Source of the DNA: Bacteroidia bacterium
GTDB taxonomy: Bacteria > Bacteroidota > Bacteroidia > UKL13-3
Length of the DNA: 64,000 nt
Assembly (NCBI GenBank): GCA_021740845.1
Contig: JAIOYZ010000001.1
Span: forward strand, 147,246-211,245
Reading direction: 5' to 3'
The position numbers were made by a program, and so were the translations under genes. The notes under the pieces are model-generated. The model searched no databases. It was not told where the DNA came from and saw nothing but the letters and a program-made list of their open reading frames with translations. Shown here in pieces: positions 3,399-58,918 of the stretch (its first letter is position 1; each line of letters opens with the position of its first letter).

Positions 3399-4515
3399 AA
3401 TGAAGGTCCTTATTGTTGGTCCTGCCCACCCTTTGCGCGGTGGTTTAGCAACCTACGATGAACGTTTGTGCAAAGAGTTTATAGACCTCGGCCATTCCTG
3501 CGAGATTTTGAGTTTCTCCCTTCAATATCCTTCCATTCTTTTTCCAGGTAAAACTCAGTTTTCGTCTGATCCAAAACCACAGAATCTAATCATTCATTCT
3601 GATATCAATTCCGTTAACCCAATCAACTGGATTTTGGTTGGAAATAAATTTGCCAAGCAAAAATACGATTTGGTTATCTTCAGATATTGGATGAGTTTTA
3701 TGGCTCCTTCATTTGGTACCATAGCCAGAAAATTAAGGAAATCTGGAGCAAAAGTTATTGCAATAACAGACAATATTGTTCCTCACGAAAAACGTTTTTT
3801 TGATAAGGTATTTACTAACTATTTTCTTAATTCATGCGATGCCTTTTTAAGCATGTCAAAAGAAGTGCAGCAGCAAGCGCAGGCACTTCAACCAGATAAA
3901 AAAGTGGCTTATGTGGCGCATCCCATGTACGATATGTTTGGTTCAGCCCAAATAAAAAGTGAAGCAAAAGAAAAGTTACGGCTTGAACCAAACACAAATT
4001 ACCTTTTGTTTTTTGGCTTTATTAGAAAATATAAAGGACTAAGTTTACTATTAGATAGTTTTGCCTTGGTTGATAGAAAGGCCTTACACCTAAAACTTAT
4101 TATTGCAGGCGAATTTTACGAAGATGCAGCTCCTTATATGGCTCAAATAGAAACTCTCGGGTTGCAAGATGATGTTGTTTTAAGAACAGATTTTATTCCC
4201 AATCCAGAAGTGTCTACCTATTTTTCGGCCTCCGATTTAGTGGTTCAAACCTATTTAAATGCTACTCAAAGTGGCGTTACACAAATAGCTTATTACTACA
4301 ATAAACCTATGCTGGTAACCAATGTGGGTGGCTTGGCAGAATTGGTGCCACATAATAAAGTAGGATATGTTTGCGAATTAAACCCTCAAACCATTGCTGG
4401 GCATATTCAAGATTTTTATGCAAATAAACGCGAGCAAGAATTTTCAAACAATGCTGAGTTAGAGAAACAAAAATTCACCTGGTTGTATTTAGTAGAGCAA
4501 ATTTGTAGCTTATAA
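3391..4515 (+). CDS. GT4 (group 1) glycosyltransferase.
   Basis: GT-B fold signature (E..GLSLLE-like, TNVGGLAELV). Overlaps the GT2 stop by 8 nt, suggesting an operon. Confidence 0.8.
   Translation: MNKMKVLIVGPAHPLRGGLATYDERLCKEFIDLGHSCEILSFSLQYPSILFPGKTQFSSDPKPQNLIIHSDINSVNPINWILVGNKFAKQKYDLVIFRYWMSFMAPSFGTIARKLRKSGAKVIAITDNIVPHEKRFFDKVFTNYFLNSCDAFLSMSKEVQQQAQALQPDKKVAYVAHPMYDMFGSAQIKSEAKEKLRLEPNTNYLLFFGFIRKYKGLSLLLDSFALVDRKALHLKLIIAGEFYEDAAPYMAQIETLGLQDDVVLRTDFIPNPEVSTYFSASDLVVQTYLNATQSGVTQIAYYYNKPMLVTNVGGLAELVPHNKVGYVCELNPQTIAGHIQDFYANKREQEFSNNAELEKQKFTWLYLVEQICSL
4242..4251 (+). repeat. GGTTCAAACC motif copy (in the GT4 CDS, encoding VQT).
   Basis: Exact 10-mer. Confidence 0.9.
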
Positions 4516-4572
4516 ATCAATTAAAATTCCGACAAGTTTTTAGATTCAACAATTTTAAATATACTTGTCGCT

Positions 4573-5649
4573 ATGGAAAAAATCTACCTCAGCTTTAATC
4601 TTGAGCCAAAAAAGTTAATCAAAGTTTGGTTCTTATTTGTAGGCTTAATAATTGCTCCTTATGTTTTGCAATATGTTGCCTATACTTCAGGAGATGCTGA
4701 AAACTATCCAGTTCAAAGAGAGTTTTATTTAATAAGTTATTTGTATGCAATTCTTGTTGCCTTAGGATATGCCTTATTTTATTTCAAGTTTGCCACCATC
4801 CTTATTAATAGAATTGGTTACAAAGATACTAACCTTGAATTTACTGAAAATTTCTTTAGTTATTTTGTACTTATGATTGGTGGCATTTTATTATGTATTG
4901 TCACTTTGGGTTTTTATGTGCCTTGGTTTATTGCTAGTATAAATAGATTCTTTACAGATTATACCCGATACAAAGAAGATTATTTTGAGTTCAATGGAAA
5001 AGGGTCTTCCCTGTTTAAAATATTTCTACTTTGGATTGTAATTCCATTGGTATTAATAATTACTTTCTTCTCAGTTGTTTTTGCTGCCTCAGGTATGGCT
5101 GGTGGGCCTGCAAAACCCCAGATGCTAGGACAATATGCCTTTATTTTTCAGGTTGTTTTTCAAATTGCTTTTTATTTTATAACCATTCCCTTTTTCTTCC
5201 TTTCCTTTAAATGGAGAGTTAATACCAAGTTCAAAGATTTTCAATTTGAAATGGATCCCCCTTTCTTTAACACAATTGGTTTTATAGCCTTACAATTAAC
5301 TTTAAGTGTTATAACACTTGGTATTTATTTGCCTATTGCTTTTGTTAATTCTTATCATTTTGTTTTGAACCAAATAAAAGGAGTAGGAGAGGAGAGAACT
5401 CTTCACCTTAACTATGAAAAGGAAACAAAAAAAGATTTCCTTTTTATTTGGGGGCAATTTCTTTTGGTGATTCTTACCATCGGATTTTATTATCCTTGGG
5501 CCTTTAAAAAAATGGGGACTTATATCTTGTCTAAAACCTCCTTGCAATTTATTTCCAAACCTTCCCAAACCATTGCCATTGGAGAATTGCCAAATGCTCA
5601 ACTTTTTAGTCAGGCTTTAGCGGATCATTCCAATGAAACCGTAGATTAA
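4573..5649 (+). CDS. DUF898 (YjgN)-like multi-pass membrane protein with internal repeats.
   Basis: Repeated GFYxPW..K hydrophobic modules; at least 8 predicted TM helices. Confidence 0.55.
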   Translation: MEKIYLSFNLEPKKLIKVWFLFVGLIIAPYVLQYVAYTSGDAENYPVQREFYLISYLYAILVALGYALFYFKFATILINRIGYKDTNLEFTENFFSYFVLMIGGILLCIVTLGFYVPWFIASINRFFTDYTRYKEDYFEFNGKGSSLFKIFLLWIVIPLVLIITFFSVVFAASGMAGGPAKPQMLGQYAFIFQVVFQIAFYFITIPFFFLSFKWRVNTKFKDFQFEMDPPFFNTIGFIALQLTLSVITLGIYLPIAFVNSYHFVLNQIKGVGEERTLHLNYEKETKKDFLFIWGQFLLVILTIGFYYPWAFKKMGTYILSKTSLQFISKPSQTIAIGELPNAQLFSQALADHSNETVD

Positions 5650-5688
5650 TTCAATTTTAGAATTGATTTTTTTTTACTTAATCCTTTT

Positions 5689-5698
5689 GGTTCAAACC
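5689..5698 (+). repeat. GGTTCAAACC motif copy (intergenic; extended TTGGTTCAAACCGA).
   Basis: Exact 10-mer. Confidence 0.9.
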
Positions 5699-5969
5699 GA
5701 TTTTATGAATTCTTAGATTAAAGTTGGATTAATTAATTTTTTCTTAAAAAAAAACAATTTGCTCTTTAGTTGGATGCATTTTTAGATTTTACTTGGAATG
5801 CGACAATTAATTGCATTACTTTAAATTTACAAAAATATATGAACCCTTTGGAAAAGGTTTAATTTTTAAGAAAACTGTTCTTTTTATTGTTTCAAATTAA
5901 TTATCTATTATGAAAAAAAATGTACTTGTTTCATTTGCAGAGACGGCACCTCCTTCTGCAAGTCCTTCA

Positions 5970-16355: not shown

Positions 16356-18083
16356 TTATTCTACCCTAAATATGGGTATTCTTTTGTGTTCCTGCTCATA
16401 ATATGGAGAGTGATGGTAAATAAAGCCCAATACCTCATATTTGTCATTTGCCTTTTCGGGATATGTCATTTTCCATCGCTCAAAATCTTGCTTTAATTTG
16501 GGGTCCTTATCCAATAAAGCCAGCGCATCATCTTCAAAAGCATAATCAGAAAAGCCTTCTTTTTCGTTTAAAAAGGCATCAAAAAAGTTCCAATAGGTAA
16601 ACCCATCCTTTGCCTCAGGTACCAATGCCTCCATCAAATACCTAAGCCCCCGTTGATTCGTTGGAATCATCCAATCGCCTTCCCTTAATTCTATTTCTAT
16701 TTTTTTAGTTTTGGTTCGAACCGAATTAGCTACAAAATGACCCTCATATGGAGCTTTTCCATATTGTATTTCTGTAATATATGTAGCCGTAACTTCCATT
16801 TTTTCAGGTAAAGCAGATCGTATATATATAATAGAATTTGCCTTTAATCGCTCAATTACCTTTACATTTTCTTTGGGAACAATAAAGTATTTAGGAATAC
16901 CAACCGATAAGCCAGCAAAACAAGAGTCATAATAGGGAATGGTTTTCTCAAATGGCCTTTTTTTATTGTAATAATGCCTTTGATAATTCCCAAGTTTGCT
17001 TGGAATTTCCTCAAACTCATATCCTTTAAAAACTAAATTTTTATGGCTTTCTCTGCTTACCTGAAAATTGGTTTCGCAAGTACCTAATCCTAAAATCCAT
17101 TTTTGTTGGGCTGTTTTGGTTTGAACTAAAAGGCTTCTTTCTTGAACGCAAAATTTCTGAAATGTTTCAAAAAGACTATATGTTGCTTTTACTCTTTCTG
17201 GATAAGGTTTAAGCATATGGGTTTCTGCCACAAATCCCAATGTGCCAAATAGTGCAGCATAGCCTGTAGAAAACTTTGGACCTTCCACAAAAACCTCAAA
17301 GCCATTTGGATCCGGAGATTGACCAAAAACATTTACATATGGACTCATTTCCCAGCCTTTTTTCTTCATGTCTTTGTATAAAAATGGATTCATTTCATGG
17401 TACATAAATTCCGAAGCTGGTCCACCCAACTTTTGCTTTTGGGTGCTAATTAGAGTCATGGTATATTGGTAATCTGCTCCATTAGAAGTATGAGTATCCA
17501 AAAATACATCGGGTTGCCATTTCTGAAATAACTCATAAAATGCAAAGGTGTTTTTCGAATCTGCTTTTATAAAATCTCGGTTCAAGTCGTAATTGCCTGC
17601 ACTTGCTCTAAAACCTTTTTCTAATGGGCCATTTTGGTTGGCTCTTGTAAAGGTTTTTCTATTTTTCATCCCATCCACATTATAGGCTGGAATTACTAAA
17701 ATGGTAACACTATCAGGGATAAGTTTGGGATTGTTTGCCAAGGCTTGTAAATACAAAATAGAGGCGTCAATTCCTTCACTTTCACCTGGGTGAATACCAT
17801 TCATTATCAGCCAAACTACATTCCTTTTTTCTCCAATTTCGTTTGGTTCAAACCGCTTTTTCTTATTAACTACCAATACATGTAAGAGATTACCCTGATC
17901 TGAAAGTCCAATTTTTTGAAGCTGCATAAATTCACTCATCGAATCAATTTGTTGGTAGCTTCTTACCATTTCCTCATAGGTAGGTGTTTGGTTGCTATTA
18001 AATTTAAGTTTTGGCGATTGCGCAAAATTTAAAGTAGGTTTAAGTAGTATAAGAAGGAGGAGGGAAGCAAATTTTCTTGTCAT
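16356..18083 (-). CDS. Secreted M14-family zinc carboxypeptidase.
   Basis: Signal peptide; GIHPGESEG zinc-binding motif characteristic of M14. Confidence 0.8.
   Translation of the reverse strand: MTRKFASLLLLILLKPTLNFAQSPKLKFNSNQTPTYEEMVRSYQQIDSMSEFMQLQKIGLSDQGNLLHVLVVNKKKRFEPNEIGEKRNVVWLIMNGIHPGESEGIDASILYLQALANNPKLIPDSVTILVIPAYNVDGMKNRKTFTRANQNGPLEKGFRASAGNYDLNRDFIKADSKNTFAFYELFQKWQPDVFLDTHTSNGADYQYTMTLISTQKQKLGGPASEFMYHEMNPFLYKDMKKKGWEMSPYVNVFGQSPDPNGFEVFVEGPKFSTGYAALFGTLGFVAETHMLKPYPERVKATYSLFETFQKFCVQERSLLVQTKTAQQKWILGLGTCETNFQVSRESHKNLVFKGYEFEEIPSKLGNYQRHYYNKKRPFEKTIPYYDSCFAGLSVGIPKYFIVPKENVKVIERLKANSIIYIRSALPEKMEVTATYITEIQYGKAPYEGHFVANSVRTKTKKIEIELREGDWMIPTNQRGLRYLMEALVPEAKDGFTYWNFFDAFLNEKEGFSDYAFEDDALALLDKDPKLKQDFERWKMTYPEKANDKYEVLGFIYHHSPYYEQEHKRIPIFRVE
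17845..17854 (+). repeat. GGTTCAAACC motif copy (in M14 peptidase CDS, minus strand, encoding RFEPN).
   Basis: Exact 10-mer. Confidence 0.9.
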
Positions 18084-18154: not shown

Positions 18155-18164
18155 GGTTTGAACC
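18155..18164 (-). repeat. GGTTCAAACC motif copy (intergenic, reverse orientation).
   Basis: Exact 10-mer read as GGTTTGAACC on the plus strand. Confidence 0.9.
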
Positions 18165-21188: not shown

Positions 21189-21198
21189 GGTTCAAACC
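21189..21198 (+). repeat. GGTTCAAACC motif copy in the nusG-rplK spacer, inside the palindrome TTCGGTTCAAACCGAA.
   Basis: Exact 10-mer. Confidence 0.9.
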
Positions 21199-27254: not shown

Positions 27255-27265
27255 AATAATAATCG

Positions 27266-27303
27266 CAGGTAAAGGATTGGTTCAAACCAACTCTTTACCT
27301 GCT
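27266..27303 (+). promoter_or_regulatory. Long near-perfect hairpin in the rpoB-rpoC spacer whose apex is a copy of the GGTTCAAACC motif.
   Basis: GCAGGTAAAGGATTGGTT-CA-AACCAACTCTTTACCTGC with no U-tract. Possible RNase III or processing structure. Confidence 0.5.
27280..27289 (+). repeat. GGTTCAAACC motif copy at the apex of the rpoB-rpoC hairpin.
   Basis: Exact 10-mer. Confidence 0.9.
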
Positions 27304-33345: not shown

Positions 33346-35202
33346 ATGAAAAAAATTGCTCAAATTATTCTTTTCGTTGCTTCTGGGTTTGCCTTAAATG
33401 CTCAAACTAATTCTGGTTTTACCTATTCTACCGTTAACCAAACTACGGCTAAGGCAGCAACTATTAACTTAATGGAATTGCCTAATTTGCCAGATGCGCA
33501 TATTATTAATATAAAAGCAGCACCTGCACCATTGAATGCTTCACAGGCTAAGAAATTAAGTTTGGATCAACAAAGAGCTACTTTTAAAAGAGGGCCTATT
33601 TTAAATAAGAAAGCAGGTGCAGCCGCTCCAACAGTTACTAAAAGTTTTAATGGAAATGTTACTCAAAGCACGCCAAACGACAATGATTTTTGCATTGGGA
33701 ATAGTGGTAGAATGATTTCTTGTGTGAATACCAATATCAATGTTTTTAATGATTCTGGAGTTCAAATTATTGGAAAAACTTTGGCAAGTTTAGGTCAGGA
33801 ATTGGGTCCATTAAATAGAACTTACGACCCTAGAACTATTTACGACCCCGTGGCAGATAGATATATTGTAGTTTATTTACAAGGAAGTTCTAGTTTAGAT
33901 ACTCGAATTATTATTGCCTTTTCAACTAGCGGTGATCCATCTAAAACATGGAATTTATATCAATTGCCTGGGAATATAACTGGGGATAGTTCTTGGAGCG
34001 ATTATCCTATTATTTCTTTGAGCAAAGACGAATTGTTTATTACCGTAAATCGCCTAAAAGACAATACATTTTGGAAGAATGGTTTCTTGGAATCTTATAT
34101 CTGGCAAGTTGATAAAAACAAAGGATTTGCGGGAGATTCATTGCCACAAAAAATTTATAATAATATTCAATTTAATGGCAAAAGTGTTTGGAGTATTTGT
34201 CCTGTAAAAGGTGGCTCTCAATTGTATGGGCCTGAAATGTATTTCCTTTCTCACCGACCATCTGATTTAACTAACGATACTGTTTTTGTGCATTATATAA
34301 CCAATACCATAGCATCTGGAAATGCTGAGTTAGGAATGAGAGTTCTTAAAAATCCAGTGTCTTATGGATTGCAGCCAAATGCTTTGATGCCAAACGGAAA
34401 GAAATTACAAACCAACGACGCTCGTGTATTGAGTGCAATGTATGAAGGCGGAGTAATTTATTATGTTGGAAATACTATCGACCCACAACGTTTTAGTCCT
34501 GGTGTATACTTTGGAAGAATTCATGAAATTTGGACGAGCACACCTCGTTTAGAAGGAACAATAATAGCATCTGATACATTAGATTTTGGCTACCCAAGTA
34601 TTGCCTATGTAGGTAGCGGAGAGAATGGCGATCACAGCAGTATGATAACTTTTTCTCATGTTTCGGATAAACAGTTTCCGGGAACATCTGTAGTTTATGT
34701 AGATAGGAATTTTAATATTTCGGAGCCAGTTTTTGTAAAGAAAGGCGAAGGAAATATTCAGTTGATAGGTGATACCGTTGAACGTTGGGGAGATTATACA
34801 GGGATTCAAAGGAAGTATAATGAATTAGGAGTTGCTTGGCTAAGTGGTTCTTGGGGAACGGCGCAAGGACAAAATAGAACTTGGATAGGAAGAGTTCAAA
34901 CCAATGATTTAACTTCTGGTTTGAACCAAACAAATGAAACTATTTCAACAGGAAAAGTTTATCCAAATCCAAGTTCGGAGCAAGTAACGTTTGAGTTTGA
35001 AATGAAAACCAAAAAACTATTGGGTGTTGAGTTGAGAAGTATTGATGGAAAGACAACACAGCTATTGGTTAAAGATTGGGCTAAGCCAGGTTTGAACCAA
35101 GTCCGCTTAGATATTTCTACTTTGAATTCGGGAATGTATTTCGTTAATCTATTATCAGATGAAGGCATTGAACATACGTTTAAGTTTGTGGTGCAGCATT
35201 AG
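33346..35202 (+). CDS. Secreted protein with a T9SS C-terminal sorting domain. Probable beta-propeller (sialidase/BNR-like) body.
   Basis: Signal peptide; C-terminal KVYPNPSSEQVTFEFE...GMYFVNLLSDEGIEHTFKFVV. Confidence 0.7.
   Translation: MKKIAQIILFVASGFALNAQTNSGFTYSTVNQTTAKAATINLMELPNLPDAHIINIKAAPAPLNASQAKKLSLDQQRATFKRGPILNKKAGAAAPTVTKSFNGNVTQSTPNDNDFCIGNSGRMISCVNTNINVFNDSGVQIIGKTLASLGQELGPLNRTYDPRTIYDPVADRYIVVYLQGSSSLDTRIIIAFSTSGDPSKTWNLYQLPGNITGDSSWSDYPIISLSKDELFITVNRLKDNTFWKNGFLESYIWQVDKNKGFAGDSLPQKIYNNIQFNGKSVWSICPVKGGSQLYGPEMYFLSHRPSDLTNDTVFVHYITNTIASGNAELGMRVLKNPVSYGLQPNALMPNGKKLQTNDARVLSAMYEGGVIYYVGNTIDPQRFSPGVYFGRIHEIWTSTPRLEGTIIASDTLDFGYPSIAYVGSGENGDHSSMITFSHVSDKQFPGTSVVYVDRNFNISEPVFVKKGEGNIQLIGDTVERWGDYTGIQRKYNELGVAWLSGSWGTAQGQNRTWIGRVQTNDLTSGLNQTNETISTGKVYPNPSSEQVTFEFEMKTKKLLGVELRSIDGKTTQLLVKDWAKPGLNQVRLDISTLNSGMYFVNLLSDEGIEHTFKFVVQH
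34918..34927 (-). repeat. GGTTCAAACC motif copy (in the T9SS protein CDS, encoding GLNQ). A 9/10 copy lies 26 nt upstream in inverse orientation.
   Basis: Exact 10-mer. Confidence 0.9.
35089..35098 (-). repeat. GGTTCAAACC motif copy (in the T9SS protein CDS, encoding GLNQ).
   Basis: Exact 10-mer. Confidence 0.9.
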
Positions 35203-35362: not shown

Positions 35363-36625
35363 TTAGCTCTTTACGATTTCGATTATTTTATTCATTACCT
35401 TCTCGGTAGCGCCTTTGTTTTGGTTAACAAAATTTCTGCTTTTTTCGCTTACAGAATTTCGGTAATTCTCATCATTTAAAACCTTTGTTATCCAATTGTC
35501 AAAATCGGTTTGCTGGTTTATTATAGTAGCAATTTCGGTTTGAACCAATTCTTTTGCTTCTGGAAAACGGTTGATTTTTGGTCCGAAGGCTAATGGCATT
35601 CCAAAGGCTGCTGCTTCCAAAGAATTATGCAAACCATTCTCCCAATAACCACCACCAATAAAGGCAGCATCAGCATAGCGGTAGGTTCGAGCCAATAATC
35701 CCATGCCATCTAAAATAAGCACTTGAAAATTTTGAAGTGGGGTGGAAGTATTTAGTTGTGAATACCGAATACACTTACCTTCAAATATCTTTTCAATGCT
35801 TGCAATTCGCTCATCTTCTACAAAATGTGGAGCAATAATGAGTTTGCATTTTAGGTTCAAACCGATTAATGCTTTAGCTAAAAATGTTTCTTCATTTACA
35901 TATGAACTGCCAGCCACAATAGTTAATTCTTGTTGCTTAAATTCATTAATATAGGGAATATCACCAAGGCTTTGGGTGATTTGAATCACGCGGTCGTAGC
36001 GGTTATCTCCAGTTACCATTTGCTGTTTGATTCCAATGGTTTTCAACAAATCTTCCGAGTGTTGGTTTTGATTAAAAATGAAGCTAAAGTAATGCAACAT
36101 TTCTTGATGAAAAGCTCCTATAGGTTTAAAAAAAATTTGGTTCGACCTAAATTGGGCAGCTAAAAGGAAAACAGGGATTTTCTTATTTTCTAAGGCTTGT
36201 AAATAGTAATACCAAAAATCATATTTGACCCAAAAAGCCATTGCTGGTTTTAAGGTTTCAATAAGCCAATCTGCATTTGTTTTGGATTCGAATGGAAGGT
36301 AATAAACCGCATCGCAAATGGAATCGTTGAGTTTAGATTCGTATCCAGATGGTGAAAAGAAAGTAGCAACTAATCTGTATTGGGGATAGCTCTTTTTTAA
36401 AGCTTCCATAACGGGTTTGCCTTGCTCAAATTCGCCTAAAGAAGAAACATGAAACCAAATACTTTTTTCGGTAAACTTAGCCTCGTTTTCAGCTATTTTT
36501 TGGTTCAAACCAACCTGACCTTTACAAAGTTTATTAGCTCTAATATTAAAAGGTGAAATAGCCTTTACTAAAGTAAAATAGGAGTTTGTGCCTATGGAGT
36601 ATAGTAGTTTACCAAGTGGTTTCAT
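35363..36625 (-). CDS. waaA: 3-deoxy-D-manno-octulosonic acid (Kdo) transferase.
   Basis: N-terminal WFHVSSLGEFEQGKPV... Kdo-transferase domain plus GT-B C-terminal domain. Confidence 0.85.
   Translation of the reverse strand: MKPLGKLLYSIGTNSYFTLVKAISPFNIRANKLCKGQVGLNQKIAENEAKFTEKSIWFHVSSLGEFEQGKPVMEALKKSYPQYRLVATFFSPSGYESKLNDSICDAVYYLPFESKTNADWLIETLKPAMAFWVKYDFWYYYLQALENKKIPVFLLAAQFRSNQIFFKPIGAFHQEMLHYFSFIFNQNQHSEDLLKTIGIKQQMVTGDNRYDRVIQITQSLGDIPYINEFKQQELTIVAGSSYVNEETFLAKALIGLNLKCKLIIAPHFVEDERIASIEKIFEGKCIRYSQLNTSTPLQNFQVLILDGMGLLARTYRYADAAFIGGGYWENGLHNSLEAAAFGMPLAFGPKINRFPEAKELVQTEIATIINQQTDFDNWITKVLNDENYRNSVSEKSRNFVNQNKGATEKVMNKIIEIVKS
35537..35546 (-). repeat. GGTTCAAACC motif copy (waaA CDS, copy 1 of 3).
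   Basis: Exact 10-mer. Confidence 0.9.
35854..35863 (+). repeat. GGTTCAAACC motif copy (waaA CDS, copy 2 of 3).
   Basis: Exact 10-mer. Confidence 0.9.
36502..36511 (+). repeat. GGTTCAAACC motif copy (waaA CDS, copy 3 of 3; encodes GLNQ on the coding strand).
   Basis: Exact 10-mer. Confidence 0.9.
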
Positions 36626-40545: not shown

Positions 40546-40575
40546 TATTTGGTTCGAACCAAACCTAAAAAAAAA

Positions 40576-41535
40576 TTATGAATTGGGCAATTCCACTGGT
40601 TGGTATTGCCCAATTTTGTTTAACTCCAATAAAGTAGAATATCCGTTTTCTGATCTTTTAAACATAGGTAAAAACTTTGCGCCATAAACGATTTCATTCA
40701 AAGCATAACTATGGCGAGTATGAATTACCTGTGAATAGGTATCGTCAAAAGCTTTAAACATAAGAATAATTTCTGGGTTCATGTCTTCTAATTCCTTTTG
40801 GTTTAAACCAAACATAGGACTCTTATCATCAATGGGGTGAACTATTGTCCAACTAAGTGATAAGGCATTTACCTTGGCCAACTCTAAATTAAGGTTGATA
40901 AACCTTCTGGTGCCTGCTTCTTTATCTTGGTAATTAAATAATAAAGTAGCTTCACATTCTATCAATTGGTTTTTTCTTGCATTGGCAATTCTAAACATAA
41001 AGGCAGTCTTATCTTGATAAGGTGAAATGAGAGCTTTTTCACTATATAATAATTTTGCATAAGGCCTAGAAAATCGTCCATATAATAAACCTGTTACCAA
41101 GGCAAAACTCATTAAGCCTAATAATGCTTCAAACGATGCAAGCAGGTTGGCCATATTACCAATTGGACTAACCCTTCCATACCCAACGGTGGTTAATGTT
41201 TGAGCACTAAATGAAAATACCTCAATGAATTGACTTGCCATACTGGTATGAAAAATACCACTTAATTCTTCTAGTCCAATTAGAAAATAACCTATGGTAA
41301 AGGATAAATTAATAAGGATAAAAACAAGGATAATCATGGTGTTAAAATAACTCCAAGGCATGGTGATTAGTTGATGAAATGGGTTTATACTTTGCAAGAA
41401 ACCTTGACCATTTCTAATCACATTAAAGGTGCCATCTCTATTTAATAAACGGTCGCCTTGATTATTTGTTCCTGAGCCAAAACCAGTATATTTATTTGAT
41501 TTAAAACGTTTCTGAAGTTCGGATAATCTCGACAT
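40576..41535 (-). CDS. Inward-rectifier-type potassium channel (KirBac family).
   Basis: Two TM helices plus a pore helix with TTVGYG selectivity filter, and a cytoplasmic Ig-like C-terminal domain. Confidence 0.8.
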   Translation of the reverse strand: MSRLSELQKRFKSNKYTGFGSGTNNQGDRLLNRDGTFNVIRNGQGFLQSINPFHQLITMPWSYFNTMIILVFILINLSFTIGYFLIGLEELSGIFHTSMASQFIEVFSFSAQTLTTVGYGRVSPIGNMANLLASFEALLGLMSFALVTGLLYGRFSRPYAKLLYSEKALISPYQDKTAFMFRIANARKNQLIECEATLLFNYQDKEAGTRRFINLNLELAKVNALSLSWTIVHPIDDKSPMFGLNQKELEDMNPEIILMFKAFDDTYSQVIHTRHSYALNEIVYGAKFLPMFKRSENGYSTLLELNKIGQYQPVELPNS

Positions 41536-45760: not shown

Positions 45761-45907
45761 ATGAAACTACGTACCTTCATTCAAATCTTAATTCTTTTTA
45801 CCTTTTTAACAGCTACAGCCTGCAAGGTAAAACGTTGTGCTAGTTTCGAAAATCAAGATAAAGATTATAAACTTAAATATGATCGGAATGGGCGCGTGAA
45901 GCGTTAA
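45761..45907 (+). CDS. Possible 48-aa secreted peptide/lipoprotein not in the ORF track, overlapping the mfd 3' end convergently.
   Basis: MKLRTFIQILILFTFLTATAC... signal-like N-terminus. Confidence 0.25.
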   Translation: MKLRTFIQILILFTFLTATACKVKRCASFENQDKDYKLKYDRNGRVKR

Positions 45908-48900
45908 GGACAACTAATTCATTCATATAATGAGTTGCTTGCTTGATGGTATTAATTTCAAAAAACAATAAAATCAAATTTAGGTTGCTTTGCTTCAATT
46001 TACATTTGTTGCCATGCAATTGAACATATTGCAAAATTCCCGCAAATAAATCTGATTGATAATAATGCTGTTTTTGTTCACTTGGGAAATAAGCCAATAG
46101 CTGCTTTTTCTTCAAGATTAATTTTTCAAAACCCATTTGCTTTCCTAATTCCCTTAACTTAATTAATGCAATTAAATCTTTTACTTCATTAGGTACTGGT
46201 CCAAATCTGTCTAATAATTGCGATTCAAATTGATCCAACTCTTCATCCTTTTGCAAACTACTTAATTGATTATATAGGTTCAAACGTTCTCCAATATTTC
46301 TAACATAATTATCTGGAATCAAAGCTTCCAAATCGGTTTCCAAATTGCAATCCTTTGCCTCTAATTTTTTTAGATTGGGTTCATCTTTAAATAGCTCAGC
46401 AAATTCTTCTTCTTTTAATTCATGGATTGCTTCATCTAAAATTTTATGGTACATCTCAAAACCAATTTCTGCAATAAAGCCACTTTGTTCACCACCTAAT
46501 AAATTGCCTGCGCCTCTAATGTCTAAATCTCGCATGGCTACATTAAATCCACTTCCTAAATCGCTAAATTCTTCAATGGCTTGCAATCTTCTTCTTGCGT
46601 CATTGGTTAAACTTTGCATGCTTGGTACCAACAACAAACAATAAGCTTTCTTATTACTTCTTCCAACCCTGCCTCTCATTTGATGCAAATCACTCAAGCC
46701 AAACATGTTGGCATGATTAATTATTATTGTATTGGCGTTGGAAATATCTAAACCTGCTTCAATAATTGTAGTTGCAACCAAAACATCAAATTCGCCTTCA
46801 ATAAATCGCATCATTACATCTTCTAATTTGTCTCCTTCTAATTGGCCATGTGCTACACCAATTTTCACCCCCGGACATATTCTTTCTAAATGATTTCCTA
46901 GGTCGTAAATATCTTTAACTCTATGGTGCACAAAAAACACCTGGCCACCTCTTTGTACTTCTTCCATAATAGCATCATGTATTACATCATCGTTGTAATT
47001 ATACATGGTGGTTTGAACCGGTTGCCTATTAGGTGGAGGAGTATTGATGATAGATAAGTCTCTTGCACCCATTAAGGAGAAATGTAAAGTTCTTGGAATA
47101 GGCGTTGCTGTTAATGTAAGTGTATCAACATTTGTCTTAAATGCTTTAAGTTTTTCTTTTGCCGCTACACCAAATTTTTGTTCTTCATCAATAATCAATA
47201 ATCCAAGGTCTTTAAATTTAGTATCCTTGCTCAACATGCGATGAGTACCTATCACCAAATCTAATTTTCCTTCTGAAAGTTTTTTCAAAACTTCCTTTTG
47301 TTCACTTGCAGATTTAAATCGGTTGATATAATCTATATTACATGGGAAATCTTTTAAGCGTTCTTTAAAGGTTCTATAATGCTGATTAGCCAAAATAGTT
47401 GTTGGAACCAAAATGGCAACCTGCTTGCTATCGCATATAGCTTTAAATGCCGCTCTTATTGCAATCTCCGTTTTACCAAAACCAACATCTCCACAAACTA
47501 ACCTGTCCATTGGGTGCGGACTCTCCATATCTTTTTTTACATCCCAAGTTGCTTTACTTTGGTCGGGAGTATCTTCATACATAAACGAAGCTTCCAATTC
47601 AATTTGAAGGTAATTGTCTGGAGCAAATGCAAAACCACTTTGACCTTTTCTTGCTGCATACAAGCGAATTAAATCTCTTGCAATGTCTTTAACTTTTTTC
47701 TTGGTATTACTTTTAAGTTTTTCCCAAGCATCGCTGCCCAACTTATTCATGCGAGGAGCAGTACCTTCTTTGCCTACATACTTAGAAATTTTATGTAATG
47801 AGTTTATGCTTACATATAACAAATCATTGTCTCTGTATACCAATCTAACGGCCTCTTGAAGTTGGCCATTTATCTCAAGTTTTTCTAGGCCTGCAAATTT
47901 GCCAATGCCATGGTCAATATGAGTAACAAAATCTCCAGGCCTTAATTCTCTGAGTTCTCTAAGTGTTAAAATTTTATTGCTCGTGTATCCACTTTTAACT
48001 TTGCCTTTATAGAATCTATCAAATATTTGGTGTTCGGTATAAAAGGCTAGTTTTATTTGATGGTCAATAAAGCCATTGCTTAATCCATGGTAAACAGGAT
48101 TAAATTTTACATCCTTGTCAAGGTCTTCAAAAATGGTATAAAGTCTTTCTATTTGCCTGCTGCTTTCACTAAAAATTAAATTGATAAAATCTCTACCCGA
48201 ATTATCTTTCAGGTTTTCTATTAGCATTTTAAAATTTTTATGAAACAAAGGCTGTGGACTCATATGGAAATCAAACGTAATTTTGGATTTCACTGCTTTT
48301 CTAGTTCCAAATTCTATAAGCTTAAAATTAGTTAGCTGTTTGAACCAATCCTTTTCTTGCATCCAAGTTTTTTCTATGCCTTCATAGCTTATTTCGTGAG
48401 TGTCTTTAAATAATTCGGGATTGAATCTTTCTGCCTTTTCTAAACCTTTTGCTATTTGTTCCTTGCCAAGGTTTAAATCTTGTGTCCATATTAAGGTGTT
48501 TTCTGGCAAGTAATCAAAGAAGCTTTGTGTTTGTTTTATTTCCTTTTGAACATTGGGAATAATAAAAAACCTATCTACCTTTTTTATTGATAATTGATCT
48601 ATTGGTTCAAAAATTCTAATGGCTTCAATTGTGTCTCCATTTAATTCTATCCTATAAGGTTTATCATTGCTAAAAGAATAAACATCTACAATACCTCCTC
48701 TAATACTAAATTGGCCAGCCTCATAAACAAAATCACTTCTATCAAAATTATGTTCTGTTAAGAATTCAATAAAAAACTCTAAATCAAAATTATCGCCTAC
48801 CTTTATTTCGAAAGTATTTTGGTTCAAATCATTCTCACCCATTACCCATTCGCAAACGGCTTCAGCTGTAGTAATTACCCATTCGGCTTTAGAGTATTTT

Positions 48901-52887: not shown

Positions 52888-53547
52888 TTATCTGTTCCCA
52901 AAAATTGAGCTTCCAACTCTAACCAAAGTAGAGCCTTCTTTTACTGCCAATAAATAATCACTGCTCATGCCCATAGATATTTCTTTAAATGAAGGCGATT
53001 GGCTAAAATAGTTGTTTTTCAATTCCTCAAATAGGGTTTTTAATCCTGCAAATTCCTTTCTAATTAGTTCCTCATTTTCTGTATTACTAGCCATTCCCAT
53101 TAAGCCTACAATTTCAATGTTTTCTAAGGGATTTAACCTAAGGCTATCCAATAATTCAGTCAACTCTGTTTGGTTCAAACCGAACTTTGTATCTTCTTGA
53201 GCTATGTATATTTGGAGGAGCACGGGTATAACGCGATTGTTTTTTAAAGCTTCTTTATTTATGGTTTCTAGTAGTTTATAACTATCCACCGAATGAATTA
53301 AACTCACAAAAGGAGCAATATATTTTACCTTATTGCTTTGCAAATGCCCAATTAAATGCCACTCTATATCCTTTGGCAGTTCTTGGTATTTCTCTAGCAT
53401 TTCTTGAACCTTGTTTTCGCCAAATAAACGTTGGCCAGCTTCATAGGCTTCTAGCAGTAGTTCTTTGGGTTTTGTTTTACTTACAGCAATTAATCTGGCG
53501 GTAGCACCTATTTCTTGGTTTATTTTTTGAATATTTGCAGCAATCAT
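52888..53547 (-). CDS. yggS: YggS-family PLP homeostasis protein.
   Basis: AVSKTKP lysine motif and TIM-barrel alanine racemase N-domain. Start at ATG 53547. Confidence 0.85.
   Translation of the reverse strand: MIAANIQKINQEIGATARLIAVSKTKPKELLLEAYEAGQRLFGENKVQEMLEKYQELPKDIEWHLIGHLQSNKVKYIAPFVSLIHSVDSYKLLETINKEALKNNRVIPVLLQIYIAQEDTKFGLNQTELTELLDSLRLNPLENIEIVGLMGMASNTENEELIRKEFAGLKTLFEELKNNYFSQSPSFKEISMGMSSDYLLAVKEGSTLVRVGSSIFGNR
53172..53181 (+). repeat. GGTTCAAACC motif copy (yggS CDS, encodes GLNQ on the coding strand).
   Basis: Exact 10-mer. Confidence 0.9.
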
Positions 53548-53935
53548 GAGAGTAAATAATAGTTTCAAATATCTGTTTATCTTGTCTATTGTGCTAATTT
53601 TTTCGTGTAATAACGATGGATTGCAGACGGTAGACAAACCTAAAAACCTGATTTCGCAAGAGAAATTGGCAGAGATAATTTCGGATATTCACATAGCCGA
53701 GTCGGGCTTGCAGTTGAGTAATTTGTCTCCCGATTCTTTAAACAGAATGACTGCTGGGTACTATGATTTTATTTTTGACAAACACCAAGTAAAACAATCC
53801 GACTTTGAAATGAGTTACAGTTATTACCTTGGTAACCCTCCCGAAATGGATTCCATTTACCTTAAAGTTATCGATGGACTAAACTCCAAAGATTCTCGTT
53901 CGCGAGGTGTTTTGGTGGAACCAAGCAACCCATAA
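53546..53935 (+). CDS. DUF4296-like lipoprotein.
   Basis: Lipobox LIFSC. The ORF track puts the 5' end 2 nt past the yggS start, divergent. Confidence 0.55.
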   Translation: MRVNNSFKYLFILSIVLIFSCNNDGLQTVDKPKNLISQEKLAEIISDIHIAESGLQLSNLSPDSLNRMTAGYYDFIFDKHQVKQSDFEMSYSYYLGNPPEMDSIYLKVIDGLNSKDSRSRGVLVEPSNP

Positions 53936-53953
53936 TAAGTAAAAAATAGAACT

Positions 53954-56350
53954 TTGACATATCCTAAAAATATTGAGCAAAAACTTGGGTTCAACCAAGT
54001 AAAAGAATTAGTGCAAGCTCGCTGTCTTTCTCCAATGGGAATGCAGTATATAGACCGTATTCGTTTTGTAAATCGTTTTGATTTACTGGAGAAAATGTTG
54101 CAGCAAACCAAGGAATTTAAAACTTTGTTGCAGGAAGATACTCCTTTTCCAAATGAACATTATTTTGATGTTGGTCCGTGGTTACATAAAGCCAAAATTG
54201 AAGGCGTTTGGCTTCAAGAGGATGAATTGCAACAGATGAAATTGGTATTGCAAACCTTTCTTCAAGTTACTCGATATTTTAGAGAAAGGAATGGGAAATA
54301 CCCTCAGTTAGAATCTTTATTAGAAGGATTAATCATCAATGATTTAATAATTCGTAGAATAGATAGAATCATCGATTTGGAAGGAAATCTGCGTCCAAAT
54401 GCTTCGCCAGATTTGTCTAAAATTTCTTCCAAGATTGCTGAGAAAGAATCGGAGATTAGAAAACGTATTCAAAAGTTATTTGATAAAAATACCGATTTAG
54501 GTTATTTAACGGAACAAATTGGTATTACAATTCGTGAAGGTAGATTGGTATTGCCTGTTTTGGCTGAACATAAGCGCCATGTTCCAGGTTTTGTTCACGA
54601 TGAATCTAATACAGGCCAAACAGTTTATATTGAGCCTTCGGAGTGTTTTGATTTAAATAATATGCTGCGTGAATTGCAAATTGCTTACCGCAGAGAACGC
54701 GAACGTATTTTATTAGAATTAACTGATCAAATCCGACCAGAAATACCAGAACTCGAAAAGAATTTACAGCGCTTAGGTTTGTTTGATTTTATTAGAGCAA
54801 AAGCTTTAACTGCTATTGCTATGAAAGCAGACATGCCTATTTTGAACAAGCACCCAAGTTTAAATTTGGTTAATGCTTACCATCCATTGCTCCGCATGAG
54901 TCATGATAAATTGGGATTGAAAACAGTTCCTTTGTCTATGAGTTTAAACAGAGATAAGCATATTGTGGTTATTTCTGGTCCTAATGCTGGTGGAAAATCT
55001 GTTTGCCTTAAAACAGTTGGTTTGCTACAATATATGTTGCAAACAGGTTTTTTAATTTCTTGTGATAGCCACAGTGAAGTGGGTGTTTACAAAGAAATGA
55101 TGGTAGATATTGGCGACGAGCAAAGTATAGAAAATGATTTGAGTACATATAGTTCTCATCTATTGAGCATGAAAAACTTCTGCGATTTTGCAGATGGTAA
55201 AACCTTGTTTTTAATTGATGAATTTGGAACCGGTACCGACCCGCAATTTGGAGGACCCTTGGCCGAGGCCATTCTTCATCATTTAGCACAAAAGAAGGCT
55301 CAAGGTGTTGTTACAACTCACTTTAGTAATTTAAAGAATTTTGCTGCCAACTATTCGGGTTTGGAAAATGCAAGCATGTTATTTGATCATCAAAACATGC
55401 AACCACTTTATATCTTAGAATTGGGTAAACCCGGTAGTAGTTATGCTTTTGAGCTTGCAGTAAAGAGCGGTTTGAACCAACACATTATCAACTATGCAAA
55501 AAATAAGGTAGGAGATAAACAGCGAAAGGTGGATGACTTATTAGTGGAGTTGGAAAAGGAGAAGAGTCAAGTTAGTGAGCTCAAAGCACGGTTTACAGAA
55601 AAGGAAAATAAGTCGCAACAACTTTTGGTTCAATACGAAAAATTAACCGACGAATTAGAAAAGAACAAACGCCTTTTAATTAAGCAGGCAAAGCAAGAAG
55701 CATTGGCAATTGTAACTGAGGCCAATAGTAGAATTGAAGCCACAATTAGAGAAATAAAAGAAAAGCAAGCCGATTCTGAAGTTCAAAAAAAGGCGCGTAC
55801 CGAAATTAAAGAAGAACTAAAAGAATTGAAAACCTTTGTAGAAAAGGAAAAGGTTTTGGAGTTAGAAACAAAACCGAAAATTTCTGCTGATCAAGAAATC
55901 AAAATTGGTGATTCTGTTAGAGTAATTGGTCAGGAAAATATTGGCGAAGTTATAAGTATACATAAGAACATTGCCAATGTAGCTATGGGTGAATTGCGCT
56001 CAAACATAAACTTAAATAAACTTGAAAAGTTAAGTAAAGCTGAGGTAAAGACTTCACTTAAAAATGCACCTAAAGGCATCGATTTAAATTCTAAGATGCA
56101 GAACTTTACCCATGAGTTAAATATTATAGGAACTAGGGGAGAAGAGGCAATAAGAGCAATGAACGATTTTGTGGATGAGGCAATTTTACTTGGCATTAAA
56201 CAAGTTAGAATTGTTCATGGTAAAGGTTATGGAATCCTAAGAAAATTGGTTAGAGAGCAATTGCAACACAATAAATTTGTTGTGAATTGCCACGATGAGC
56301 ACATAGAATTAGGAGGAGATGGGGTAACTATTGTGAATTTGAGAGTTTAA
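53954..56350 (+). CDS. mutS2: Endonuclease MutS2 (MutS domain plus C-terminal Smr).
   Basis: Walker A GPNAGGKS, coiled-coil linker, and Smr domain at the C-terminus. Confidence 0.92.
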   Translation: MTYPKNIEQKLGFNQVKELVQARCLSPMGMQYIDRIRFVNRFDLLEKMLQQTKEFKTLLQEDTPFPNEHYFDVGPWLHKAKIEGVWLQEDELQQMKLVLQTFLQVTRYFRERNGKYPQLESLLEGLIINDLIIRRIDRIIDLEGNLRPNASPDLSKISSKIAEKESEIRKRIQKLFDKNTDLGYLTEQIGITIREGRLVLPVLAEHKRHVPGFVHDESNTGQTVYIEPSECFDLNNMLRELQIAYRRERERILLELTDQIRPEIPELEKNLQRLGLFDFIRAKALTAIAMKADMPILNKHPSLNLVNAYHPLLRMSHDKLGLKTVPLSMSLNRDKHIVVISGPNAGGKSVCLKTVGLLQYMLQTGFLISCDSHSEVGVYKEMMVDIGDEQSIENDLSTYSSHLLSMKNFCDFADGKTLFLIDEFGTGTDPQFGGPLAEAILHHLAQKKAQGVVTTHFSNLKNFAANYSGLENASMLFDHQNMQPLYILELGKPGSSYAFELAVKSGLNQHIINYAKNKVGDKQRKVDDLLVELEKEKSQVSELKARFTEKENKSQQLLVQYEKLTDELEKNKRLLIKQAKQEALAIVTEANSRIEATIREIKEKQADSEVQKKARTEIKEELKELKTFVEKEKVLELETKPKISADQEIKIGDSVRVIGQENIGEVISIHKNIANVAMGELRSNINLNKLEKLSKAEVKTSLKNAPKGIDLNSKMQNFTHELNIIGTRGEEAIRAMNDFVDEAILLGIKQVRIVHGKGYGILRKLVREQLQHNKFVVNCHDEHIELGGDGVTIVNLRV
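55469..55478 (-). repeat. GGTTCAAACC motif copy (mutS2 CDS, encodes GLNQ).
   Basis: Exact 10-mer. Confidence 0.9.
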
Positions 56351-56848: not shown

Positions 56849-57011
56849 GTATTGGCAACATACCTGTTGCTGTTTTGTTTGCGATTAAAATTGTATTTGT
56901 TAATTGGGTTCAAGAAATAAAATTACTTTAATTTTTGTGTTTTATTTTTTATTCTTTGATACAATCAGTAAGATTGCAGACTTACCTAATAGGAAAAGGC
57001 AAATATATAGG

Positions 57012-57395: not shown

Positions 57396-57498
57396 TAGAT
57401 TTTTAAAACAGCAAGCTGAGCTTCCATAAAATAATATTTGTATATACATATAATGTTTGTACATTTGTCCTCGAATTAAACAAAATAATATTTCAAAT

Positions 57499-58029
57499 AT
57501 GAGCACAAAATGGACAATCGATCCGATGCATTCGGAAATCGAATTTAAAGTGAAGCATTTAATGATTTCTACTGTAACAGGTAAGTTTACAAGTTTTACT
57601 GCAGAAGCAGAAACAGAAAACGATGAGTTTACAAATGCAAATATTTCTTTTTCAGCTGATGTAAACTCAATTACAACTGGTAACGAACAAAGAGATGGAC
57701 ATTTAAAAAGTGATGATTTCTTTAATGTTGAACAATTTCCAGCATTAACCTTTAAGTCAACACATTTAAGCAAAGATGCAAACGGTGCAATTACTTTAAC
57801 TGGTGATTTAACCATTAGAGATATTACCAAATCTGTAGTGTTAACAGGTGAGTTCAACGGTTTAATGACAGATTTTTATGGTAATGTAAAGGCTGGTTTT
57901 GAATTGGCAGGAAAATTAAATCGTAAAGATTATAACCTTAAGTGGACCGCAACAACAGAAGCAGGTGGAGTTGTAGTGAGTGATGAAGTAAAGTTGATTT
58001 GTAACATACAAATGACTAAAGTTGCCTAA
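57499..58029 (+). CDS. yceI: YceI-family polyisoprenoid-binding protein.
   Basis: MSTKWTIDPMHSEIEFKVKHLMISTVTGKF... beta-barrel signature. Confidence 0.85.
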   Translation: MSTKWTIDPMHSEIEFKVKHLMISTVTGKFTSFTAEAETENDEFTNANISFSADVNSITTGNEQRDGHLKSDDFFNVEQFPALTFKSTHLSKDANGAITLTGDLTIRDITKSVVLTGEFNGLMTDFYGNVKAGFELAGKLNRKDYNLKWTATTEAGGVVVSDEVKLICNIQMTKVA

Positions 58030-58041
58030 AATTATTTTGGG

Positions 58042-58440
58042 ATGAAAAAGGATATTAAGTATTCAAAAGTATTGAAGGCTGCATTTATGGGCGGCTTAAT
58101 TGCAGCAGGTTTAAATGTGGCTTGGCTTTATATTTTGGAGTTTGCCGTTAATATTCAAGGATTGCCAAAAGGATTTACAGTGGCAGTTGTAATTTCATCC
58201 ATTCTTCCTTTATTAGTTGGAGCTTTGGTTTATGGGTTCTTAATAAAGAGTTTCTTAAAAGGCCAAATGCTATTCTATATTTTAAGTGTAGCTTTTGCCG
58301 TTTTTAGTTTGTTCCCTTCCTTTCAAGAAATATTACCCGATGGAAATGTGGCTCCAGCAAATTTTGCTTTGCTTACTGTTCCAATGCATTTAATTGCTGC
58401 AGTTGTTGGCGTTTATTTCATTGTAAAAAAGAGCGACTAA
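58042..58440 (+). CDS. Hypothetical 4-TM membrane protein.
   Basis: Hydrophobic helices; no recognisable motif. Confidence 0.5.
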   Translation: MKKDIKYSKVLKAAFMGGLIAAGLNVAWLYILEFAVNIQGLPKGFTVAVVISSILPLLVGALVYGFLIKSFLKGQMLFYILSVAFAVFSLFPSFQEILPDGNVAPANFALLTVPMHLIAAVVGVYFIVKKSD

Positions 58441-58486
58441 GTATTTATTTGGTTTGAAATAATTTCTAATTTCATTAAAATGCATC

Positions 58487-58918
58487 ATGAGCGAAACCAT
58501 TAAAAAATATAGTAATTCAGATATTACCATACAGTGGCAACCCGAGAAATGCATCCATTCAACTTTATGTTGGAAAGGATTGGTTCAAGTATTCAATCCT
58601 CGCGAAAAACCATGGGTGAAAATGGATGGAGCCAGCACAGAAGAAATTAGGGAGCAGGTAAAAAAATGTCCAAGTGGTGCTTTGAGCTTTCAAAATAATA
58701 TACAAGAGGTTCGGTTTGAACCAAACGCGGTTGAAAGTGAAATTAGCATTGTGGTTACTGAAAATGGTCCATTATTGGTTCAAGGCAAAAGCTTAATTAA
58801 AGAAACAAATGGAACTGTTCACGTAAAAGAAAATACAACTGCCTTATGCAGATGCGGCGCTTCAAGCAATAAACCTTTTTGTGATGGCACACACCGTAAA
58901 ATTAATTTTAAAGGATAA
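58487..58918 (+). CDS. Iron-sulfur protein: N-terminal divergent 4Fe-4S mono-cluster domain plus C-terminal CDGSH zinc-finger (mitoNEET-like).
   Basis: CRCGASSNKPFCDGTH CDGSH signature. N-terminal CxH..C cluster. Confidence 0.75.
   Translation: MSETIKKYSNSDITIQWQPEKCIHSTLCWKGLVQVFNPREKPWVKMDGASTEEIREQVKKCPSGALSFQNNIQEVRFEPNAVESEISIVVTENGPLLVQGKSLIKETNGTVHVKENTTALCRCGASSNKPFCDGTHRKINFKG
58713..58722 (-). repeat. GGTTCAAACC motif copy (CDGSH protein CDS, encodes RFEPN).
   Basis: Exact 10-mer. Confidence 0.9.

Follow-up and report, generated by a model that had tools for sequence, protein, structure and literature searches.

An oriented, quasi-palindromic DNA word hyper-abundant in an uncultured freshwater Bacteroidota genome: a candidate tag of self-DNA

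What has written the same ten letters fifteen times into 64,000 nucleotides of housekeeping DNA? The stretch in question, here called the window, belongs to a metagenome-assembled genome of an uncultured freshwater Bacteroidota ('Bacteroidia bacterium'), and the letters are those of the 10-mer GGTTCAAACC, the core of an oriented 14-16-mer, TTTGGTTCAAACCGAA. About 8% of the window is non-coding, and its gene content is that of ordinary housekeeping DNA: glycosyltransferases, an xerD-like gene, hpf, a tRNA cluster, tuf-secE-nusG-rplKAJL-rpoBC and purM, followed by a gene for a cargo protein of the type IX secretion system (T9SS), waaA, ugd, uvrB, cinA, mfd, a hybrid kinase gene, yggS, mutS2 and fmt. 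The window is identical to contigs of GCA_021739685.1 and of the Logan assemblies SRR12088350/51, with NCBI locus tags K9I36_, and together with 6.2 kb of same-strain DNA past its end it makes about 70 kb of the genome's own DNA that was covered. The species is isolated, since the nearest WaaA among 5.8 billion proteins is only 58% identical. The answer that we favour, with a probability of about 0.5, is that the word may be a species-level tag of self-DNA, like the uptake signal sequence (USS) of Pasteurellaceae, the DNA uptake sequence (DUS) of Neisseriaceae and the highly iterated palindrome HIP1 of cyanobacteria, and that a bias in the uptake or recombination of conspecific DNA may have spread it. 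This reading is favoured because the combination of features described below matches that of USS, DUS and HIP1.

The word was noticed in a first-pass annotation made from the sequence alone, which counted fifteen exact copies of the 10-mer against an expectation of about 0.1 and proposed a comparison with shuffled controls. The same copies were found at the same places, and when the comparison is run on the window with 100 dinucleotide-preserving shuffles, 15 copies stand against 0.09 expected and a shuffle maximum of 1. When one mismatch is allowed, the 10-mer has 48 matches in the window against 4.6 expected, and when two are allowed, the 14-mer TTGGTTCAAACCGA has 33 against 0.67, which amounts to about one site per 2 kb; the frequency of TTTGGTTCAAACCGAA is about one per 2-4 kb. 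When all words with k = 8-12 nt are scored, unsupervised, against a third-order Markov model, the word and its extensions rank first or close to first among those over-represented for k = 9-12, and the remaining top-ranked words all stem from one Lys/Ala-repeat gene at 45374-45664. The variant coordinates given by the annotation hold in part: GGTTCGAACC lies at 16713 and 40551 as reported, while GGTTTAAACC lies at 40800 and not 40795, and GGTTCAAACG at 48902 and not 48906.

To see how much of the surrounding DNA belongs to the word, consider an alignment of 46 copies, made up of the copies in the window, those in the related locus L007 and the non-seed copies of the metagenome loci introduced below. 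Its consensus is TTT-GGTTCAAACC-GAA, in agreement with the conserved flanks reported earlier, and it carries information only at positions -3 to +13, with background beyond. Six of the eight base pairs of the 16-mer are self-complementary, and the word is therefore quasi-palindromic, as had been said, but it is not a true palindrome. Its centre in motif-rich DNA is CA/TG in 77 cases, CG in 5 and TA in 1. The flanks are not complementary either: position -1 is T in 32 of 46 copies and position +1 is G, not the complementary A, in 24 of 46 (chi-square p = 5e-5). Taken together, positions -1 and +1 read TG in 19 cases, TA in 9 and CG in one, from which it follows that a sequence is kept and not mere base-pairing. 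When the CG form is set against the background of TTCGAA and the CA form against that of TTCAAA, the two are equally enriched and the TA form is not, so that the core is best written GGTTCRAACC. Despite the asymmetry of the word, eight exact copies lie on the plus and seven on the minus strand, which bears out the absence of strand bias noted before; at the scale of the window there is no polarity of the Chi or KOPS (FtsK-orienting polar sequence) type, because the orientation flips within a few hundred bases.

Eleven of the fifteen exact copies lie in genes, 8 of these 11 antisense to the mRNA, and the copies in genes use three reading frames, as the annotation had it. Its list of encoded peptides needs one change: RFEPN indeed occurs twice and VQT three times, and GLNQ occurs at five sites, but these fall in four proteins and not five, with one further site reading GLNL. 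The VQT sites are all sense copies, namely VVQT at 4242..4251 (+) in a group-1 glycosyltransferase gene (3391-4515), LVQT at 35537..35546 (-, with the full 14-mer) in waaA (35363-36625, -) and PVQT at 47010..47019 (-) in mfd (45873-49244, -). The GLNQ sites comprise two in the T9SS cargo gene 33346-35202, at 34918..34927 (-, antisense) and 35089..35098 (-), and antisense copies at 36502..36511 (+) in waaA, at 53172..53181 (+, full 16-mer) in a yggS-like gene (52888-53637, -) and at 55469..55478 (-) in mutS2 (53954-56350). The GLNL site at 35854..35863 (+) is again antisense in waaA, which thus holds the three copies ascribed to it. Both RFEPN sites are antisense, at 17845..17854 (+) in an M14 peptidase gene (16356-18083, -) and at 58713..58722 (-, full 16-mer) in a Fer4_19/CDGSH gene (58487-58918).

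The two shuffling schemes that bear on the coding copies either permute synonymous codons, so that all proteins are kept, or permute the order of codons within genes. Against the 11 genic copies observed, the former gives 0.71 and the latter 0.16, excesses of about 15-fold and 70-fold. Codon choice is bent accordingly. The tripeptide GLN is spelled GGTTTGAAC (GGT-TTG-AAC) in 6 of 11 cases, where about 0.5 would be expected from codon usage, and VQT is spelled GTTCAAACC (GTT-CAA-ACC) in 6 of 8 cases against about 0.9; RFEP, at both of its sites, uses the arginine codon CGG, which accounts for 3% of Arg codons and puts the favoured G at the flank. As both codon nulls are exceeded and codon choice is bent, the word must have been imposed at the level of DNA, by selection or drive, and the earlier claim that a DNA word and not a peptide is kept is thereby upheld; a peptide motif or a codon bias is ruled out.

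How the copies arose is seen when six genic sites are compared with 4-5 relatives. All alignments are gap-free, and at five of the six sites the relatives encode different residues. At the LVQT site of waaA (35537) they have LVKE, LVEM, LVDL and MVSL; they also differ at 35854, at 36502 and at the RFEPN site 17845, and the residues at 34918 are not conserved. The exception is GLNQ at 35089, where the relatives have GLNQ, GLNR or GLNK, and this is the one site that conservation of the protein may explain, to judge from the aligned residues. From these comparisons it follows that the word is imposed by synonymous as well as amino-acid-changing substitutions, the latter at weakly conserved residues. 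An insertion of a miniature inverted-repeat transposable element (MITE) or of a repetitive extragenic palindromic (REP) unit is rejected on the same grounds, and the exclusion of mobile insertions in the first-pass annotation, which had named a single element family with flanks conserved beyond about 20 nt as the finding that would overturn its view, is borne out: genic copies are gap-free in the orthologue alignments and there is no information beyond about 16 nt.

The four remaining exact copies are intergenic, in a window where some 8% of the DNA is non-coding, so that the intergenic excess claimed earlier holds. The copy at 5689..5698 (+, full 14-mer) lies 40 nt past the stop of a DUF898 gene and upstream of the gene for a 2885-aa T9SS protein, and that at 18155..18164 (-, full 16-mer) lies between the peptidase gene and the tRNA cluster. 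The copy at 21189..21198 (+) in the nusG-rplK spacer forms a small hairpin, TTCGGT-TCAA-ACCGAA, and the one at 27279-27288 sits at the tip of a hairpin at 27265..27302 (+) in the rpoB-rpoC spacer, of which a 100-nt segment folds at -24 kcal/mol. Together with GGTTCGAACC at 40551..40560, which lies at a small hairpin between the convergent gene 40000-40545 and a K-channel gene, the spacer copies at 21189 and 27279 are thus at hairpin tips, and for these three the hairpins described in the annotation stand. Relatives also have hairpins in the nusG-rplK and rpoB-rpoC spacers, with sequences unrelated to those of the window; thus the tips of older, pre-existing hairpins appear to have been rewritten into the word.

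Among close pairs of the motif 10 of 13 are inverted; in the window the copy at 34918 forms an inverted pair with a one-mismatch copy at 34893. In motif-rich metagenome contigs, inverted copies separated by 15-70 nt give rise to long, terminator-like hairpins. In the contig L291 (1170-1215) a 17-bp stem is followed by T8, with a folding energy of -32.5 kcal/mol for the 91-nt segment, and L260 shows much the same. Inverted pairs in terminators are an arrangement that Kingsford et al. (PMC1852404) described for USS and DUS.

Two other forms of the word occur in genes. The CG-centred perfect palindrome GGTTCGAACC occurs with the flanks of the motif at 16713..16722 in the peptidase gene, and the variant GGTTTAAACC at 40800..40809 in the K-channel gene, where it encodes GLNQ, is the only TA-centred copy. 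No exact copy occurs in the coding sequence of rpoB, rpoC, tuf or the ribosomal protein genes, and none in the 8.6 kb of the gene for the 2885-residue T9SS-secreted protein (5910-14567), a gene with GEVED, beta-helix and Por_Secre_tail domains.

If the word is a property of the genome and not of the window, it should recur elsewhere, and it does: the 6.2 kb of same-strain DNA past the end of the window hold three more copies. A scan of metagenomes with the 16-mer gave at least 120 matches, in which chance matches of high GC content are mixed with low-GC contigs. Among the matches listed there are 23 low-GC contigs (101.5 kb) with at least two copies each, one of the 23 overlapping the window, and among those listed they have 0.33 copies per kb when the seed copy is left out. 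The other low-GC contigs encode unrelated housekeeping proteins, among them a pullulanase-like protein, MurF-Alr, DnaX, GlnRS, the ATP synthase beta subunit, RNase G and serine hydroxymethyltransferase (SHMT), and the low-GC motif contigs also encode T9SS sorting domains, typical of Bacteroidota. A regional cluster, of the kind formed by parS near the origin, is rejected by these copies in unlinked contigs and beyond the window. Carriage by phages was rejected as well, in that a scan of viral contigs with the 14-mer gave at least 120 loci and 78 of the 80 listed have a single match, as by chance.

Among relatives the picture is patchy. The survey comprised 80 RpoC-anchored loci from GTDB species representatives, to which WaaA-anchored loci were added, and covered 14-24 kb per genome. 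Of the 80, only L007 (JAIYCU01, RpoC 93% identical) is dense, with five copies in 22.7 kb, and most of these have no counterpart at the same place in the window, going by their distance from rpoC and the five orthologous sites inspected. Near the site that corresponds to 35854, for instance, L007 has a copy of its own, displaced by a few codons and opposite in orientation. Positions thus appear to turn over between the two lineages in which the word is dense. One metagenome copy, at 497 of L239, maps to 53172 by alignment coordinates only, in a 72%-identical orthologue. Three loci that group with the window in a neighbour-joining tree of RpoC (L004, L005 and L006) have 0-1 copies each, and other relatives with a comparable RpoC identity nearly lack the word. 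The WaaA-anchored loci hold two copies in 14 kb (L328), one (L326) and none (L327 and L330). The single copies of L006 and L326 lie, by position, in the T9SS cargo gene and are not counted as enrichment, because L006 spells the orthologous GLNQ with codons that match the word (for L326 the assignment is by position only). The word is therefore dense in the source species, L007 and L328, and near absent in the other relatives sampled.

The locus L005, one of the three that group with the window by RpoC, is from the same organism as L329 and has a word of its own, TGGTTCAGCC, with five occurrences in 24 kb against eight in the other 3.25 Mb compared. It shares its left half, TTGGTTCA, with the word of the window, and TTGGTTCAGCC is found at positions 675, 725, 836, 18895 and 20371. 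On these 24 kb of sequence, L005 may be read as carrying a dialect of the window's word.

How do these features compare with those of words already understood? USS (core AAGTGCGGT) and DUS (ATGCCGTCTGAA) are, like the word of the window, oriented and 10-16 nt long. They share with it a 50-170-fold excess, a spacing of about one per 2-4 kb, equal use of the strands, a placing in tolerant positions of genes and, in excess, in spacers, inverted pairs in terminator hairpins, restriction to a lineage and possibly a dialect in a relative. The comparison with uptake sequences made in the annotation is thus supported in part, in that both orientations, copies in and between genes with an excess in spacers, terminator-like inverted pairs, lineage restriction and turnover of positions are all seen. 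The density of USS and DUS is about one per kb, and that of the window's word lies within a few-fold of it. Their copies number 'generally >= 1,000 per genome' (PMC1852404). Unlike them, the present word is unrelated in sequence to either, is quasi-palindromic, so that a single copy can cap a hairpin, and belongs to another phylum, for which no receptor of the ComP type is known; some closely related genomes are almost without it.

HIP1 (GCGATCGC) is similar in other respects: it is hyper-abundant, has palindromic character, occurs within genes as well as in spacers, represents no peptide or RNA motif, and differs in abundance between lineages. It is 15-300 times over-represented (PMC5861425), and according to two preprints it increases natural transformation and varies in step with uptake genes (bioRxiv 10.1101/2024.09.10.611283; 10.64898/2026.06.24.733823). 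HIP1 is, however, a perfect 8-bp palindrome with methyltransferase sites, phylum-wide and conserved in position. The word of the window is longer, imperfect and oriented, occurs in few species, seems to turn over in position and is not known to be linked to a methyltransferase, and the frequency of TTCGAA, which its minor variant contains, is normal. The sites of ParB (parS), Noc (the Noc-binding site, NBS), SlmA (the SlmA-binding site, SBS) and MatP (matS) are dyad-symmetric over 12-16 bp and often genic; unlike these, which number tens per genome and are often regional, the word is asymmetric, non-regional in the samples and by extrapolation present in hundreds of copies per genome. REP units, bacterial interspersed mosaic elements (BIMEs) and MITEs are likewise abundant, partly self-complementary and found at spacer hairpins, but they are inserted units conserved over at least 20-30 nt and intergenic, whereas the word spans 16 nt, has unconserved flanks, is mostly genic and arises by substitution.

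The self-tag reading would account for these observations in the following way. Assume that some component of the lineage's pathway for DNA uptake or recombination prefers the word. Conspecific fragments that contain it would then be taken up or recombined more often, and point mutations that create it would be over-transmitted, which is a molecular drive. Copies would build up where they are tolerated, that is, at the tips of spacer hairpins and in weakly constrained codons such as those for GLNQ, VQT and RFEPN, and by its near self-complementarity single copies would cap hairpins while inverted pairs could be co-opted as terminator stems. We infer that a reader of the word would belong to the machinery of uptake or recombination and that the organism would be naturally transformable.

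Several observations weigh against this reading. USS and DUS are not palindrome-like, unlike the window's word, and a 16-mer with six of eight self-complementary pairs fits a dimeric binder or a hairpin about equally well. No competence, pilus, receptor, methyltransferase or restriction gene lies within the 64-kb window. The contigs sampled outside the window were partly selected by the motif itself, and Ga0209550_10000169 (L327), a lineage that was found through the motif, is only weakly enriched, with no copy in 21 kb of unbiased syntenic DNA, so that motif density differs between lineages. Lastly, motif-poor relatives keep GGTTCGAACC with the same flanks in the K-channel spacer and in purM. 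At the spot syntenic with 40551 of the window, by the K-channel gene, relatives keep it at 6100 of L327, 4982 of L328 and 6095 of L330, and such fixed CG-centred palindromes look more like conserved binding sites or hairpins than like products of drive.

Observations of the last kind lead to the alternative that a chromosome-associated protein with a role in nucleoid structure, segregation or occlusion binds the word at high density, as a much denser counterpart of parS, NBS, SBS or matS, and that selection keeps the copies for the sake of chromosome organisation. The quasi-palindromic 16-mer, the equal enrichment of the perfect palindrome GGTTCGAACC and the CA form after correction for background, and the fixed palindromes of the motif-poor relatives all speak for it, and for HIP1 a service to nucleoid structure has been argued by Xu et al. 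(PMC5861425). A symmetric dimer does not, however, predict the asymmetry of flanks and centre (p = 5e-5; TG 19, TA 9, CG 1), and the dimeric-protein site offered by the annotation as its second interpretation loses support accordingly. A density of about one site per 2-4 kb is far above that of parS, NBS, SBS and matS, systems with tens of sites per genome, the positions seem to turn over between two dense lineages, and close relatives with the same chromosome layout are nearly without the word. Nor is a gene for a sequence-specific DNA-binding protein linked to it: the sole nucleoid-type gene in the window is the Lys/Ala-rich H1-like one, and proteins of that kind bind DNA without sequence specificity. 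All in all we regard a chromosome-protein site as unlikely. The probability is lower still that the word is a functionless by-product of a bias in repair or modification, caused by an orphan methyltransferase with a Vsr-like endonuclease or by some other conversion. Conversion of near matches would give the roughly 10-fold enrichment of one-mismatch variants, a single transition separates the CA/TG centre from the CG palindrome, a patchy distribution would result if one enzyme were gained or lost, and HIP1 reportedly holds recognition sites of orphan methyltransferases (PMC4390886). Set against this, neither a methyltransferase nor a Vsr gene lies within the window, the observed/expected ratio of TTCGAA is 1.08, neither depleted nor enriched, and that of CpG, 0.68, reflects a general depletion only, so that restriction avoidance or methyl-deamination at TTCGAA is rejected for want of any anomaly in frequency. 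The specificity over 14-16 nt is also far longer than that of any methyltransferase or Vsr site known to us, and the biases of very-short-patch repair of which we know shift word frequencies by well under 2-fold, not 50-170-fold.

The hairpins suggest yet another account, in which the word is a structural module, a hairpin or terminator acting as RNA or single-stranded DNA, and its genic copies are incidental. Spacer copies cap hairpins, inverted pairs followed by T-runs resemble intrinsic terminators, and the T and G flanks would form a G-U wobble on one strand. That account is very improbable, considering that 11 of 15 copies are genic and 8 of these 11 antisense to the mRNA, that Watson-Crick pairs at the flanks (CG 1, TA 9) are rarer than TG (19), and that the hairpins in the nusG-rplK spacer and at 40551 are followed by A-runs and not T-runs. 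A known RNA family is rejected too, the only Rfam matches in the window being five tRNAs. Least of all to be believed is that the copies are small mobile elements of the MITE or REP kind or encode a common peptide motif: their large number and the partly self-complementary sequence would suit this, yet it is already refuted by the lack of information outside about 16 nt, by the gap-free substitutions in genes, by the use of three frames and both strands, and by the two codon nulls. An origin from the T-arm or B-box of tRNA was likewise rejected. The word does resemble GGTTCGAATCC, but it is absent from the tRNAs of the window and the two differ by one base in length, and the likeness was put down to coincidence; GGTTCGAACC is present in tRNA-Gly of the relatives L008 and L025.

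To our knowledge, hyper-abundant words written by substitution occur in three bacterial groups only, Pasteurellaceae, Neisseriaceae and cyanobacteria, and all are tied to natural transformation. No uptake sequence or HIP has been reported for Bacteroidota in the literature searched, which has the 10-mer in unrelated primers and sequences only and nowhere treats it as a motif, in agreement with the remark of the annotation that no such motif was described for the phylum. What is new here is the phylum, the sequence, a word that is both oriented and quasi-palindromic, and an unusual patchiness among close relatives. A bolder proposal, which we hold tentatively and with somewhat less confidence than the self-tag reading as such, is that the word would be the first tag for uptake or recombination of conspecific DNA in Bacteroidota, with a receptor unrelated to ComP, that the patchiness would reflect rapid gain, loss or re-targeting of this receptor, and that TTGGTTCAGCC would be a dialect.

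If this bolder proposal is true, there would be sequence-selective natural transformation in abundant uncultured freshwater bacteria. With a fourth group, in Bacteroidota, a major environmental phylum would join those known for sequence-selective gene exchange. Such a case would also offer a candidate approach to the unexplained preference for self-DNA of Riemerella: in competition assays Riemerella columbina, another member of the Bacteroidota, favours DNA of its own, and raw k-mer counting gave no motif (PMC7965970). The comparison of motif-bearing with motif-free genomes would be a handle for finding the receptor, and the case makes plain to what extent codon choice, and even the sequence of proteins, can be altered by such a drive. 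If the word is instead a protein-binding site, it is an unusually dense one and still worth characterising.

Some minor observations concern the distribution and form of the word. The densest gene of the window is mfd, where the exact copy is joined by five with one mismatch (46277, 48337, 48821, 48902 and 49167) in 3.4 kb, and copies also occur in uvrB, cinA and mutS2, though the numbers are anecdotal; they recall that DUS is reportedly biased towards genome-maintenance genes. A variant with T3 changed to A, GGATCAAACC, which creates GATC, occurs at 2803, 25947, 49167 and 59376, in all four cases on the minus strand and in two of the four flanked as TTGG...CCAA, so position 3 of the word seems to tolerate A. 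The gene at 45374-45664 (+), from which the other over-represented words stem, encodes a 96-residue Lys/Ala-rich protein with KKAAT-type repeats, resembling in its sequence the histone H1-like nucleoid proteins of bacteria. It is followed by a strong terminator, and its repeat words, for example CTTTCTTAG, are in part enriched in the loci of relatives too.

Other palindromes were seen in the loci of relatives. A different, perfect palindrome of 18 bp, TCCCGATAGCTATCGGGA, is found in six scattered relatives: at 850-1560 in L008, at 1084 and 1366 in L017, at 1474 in L076, at 1577 and 1688 in L050, at 9903, 13707 and 14591 in L013 and at 9916 in L078. In L008, L017, L076 and apparently L050 it lies within partial duplicates of tRNA-Thr or tRNA-Gly that adjoin intact genes, where it sits at the D-loop, anticodon loop or T-loop of the tRNA fragment, whereas the copies in L013 sit at the tips of spacer hairpins. 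Its appearance is that of a very small element directed at hairpin loops, or of a scar of recombination, and a literature search for its core 12-mer found one unrelated paper only. The palindrome TCCGCTAGCTAGCGGA occurs at 15766, 15871 and 15979 of L030, about 105 nt apart in repeats with tRNA-like flanks, and also at 15908 of L018. In L009 a long hairpin, GTACGGACAGGTCGCGACCTGTCCGTAC, brackets rpoC, with one copy in the rpoB-rpoC spacer (9944) and one just after rpoC (14299), and L008 has its core CAGGTCGCGACCTG in the rpoB-rpoC spacer too (9942); lineages thus fill the same spacer hairpins with palindromes of their own.

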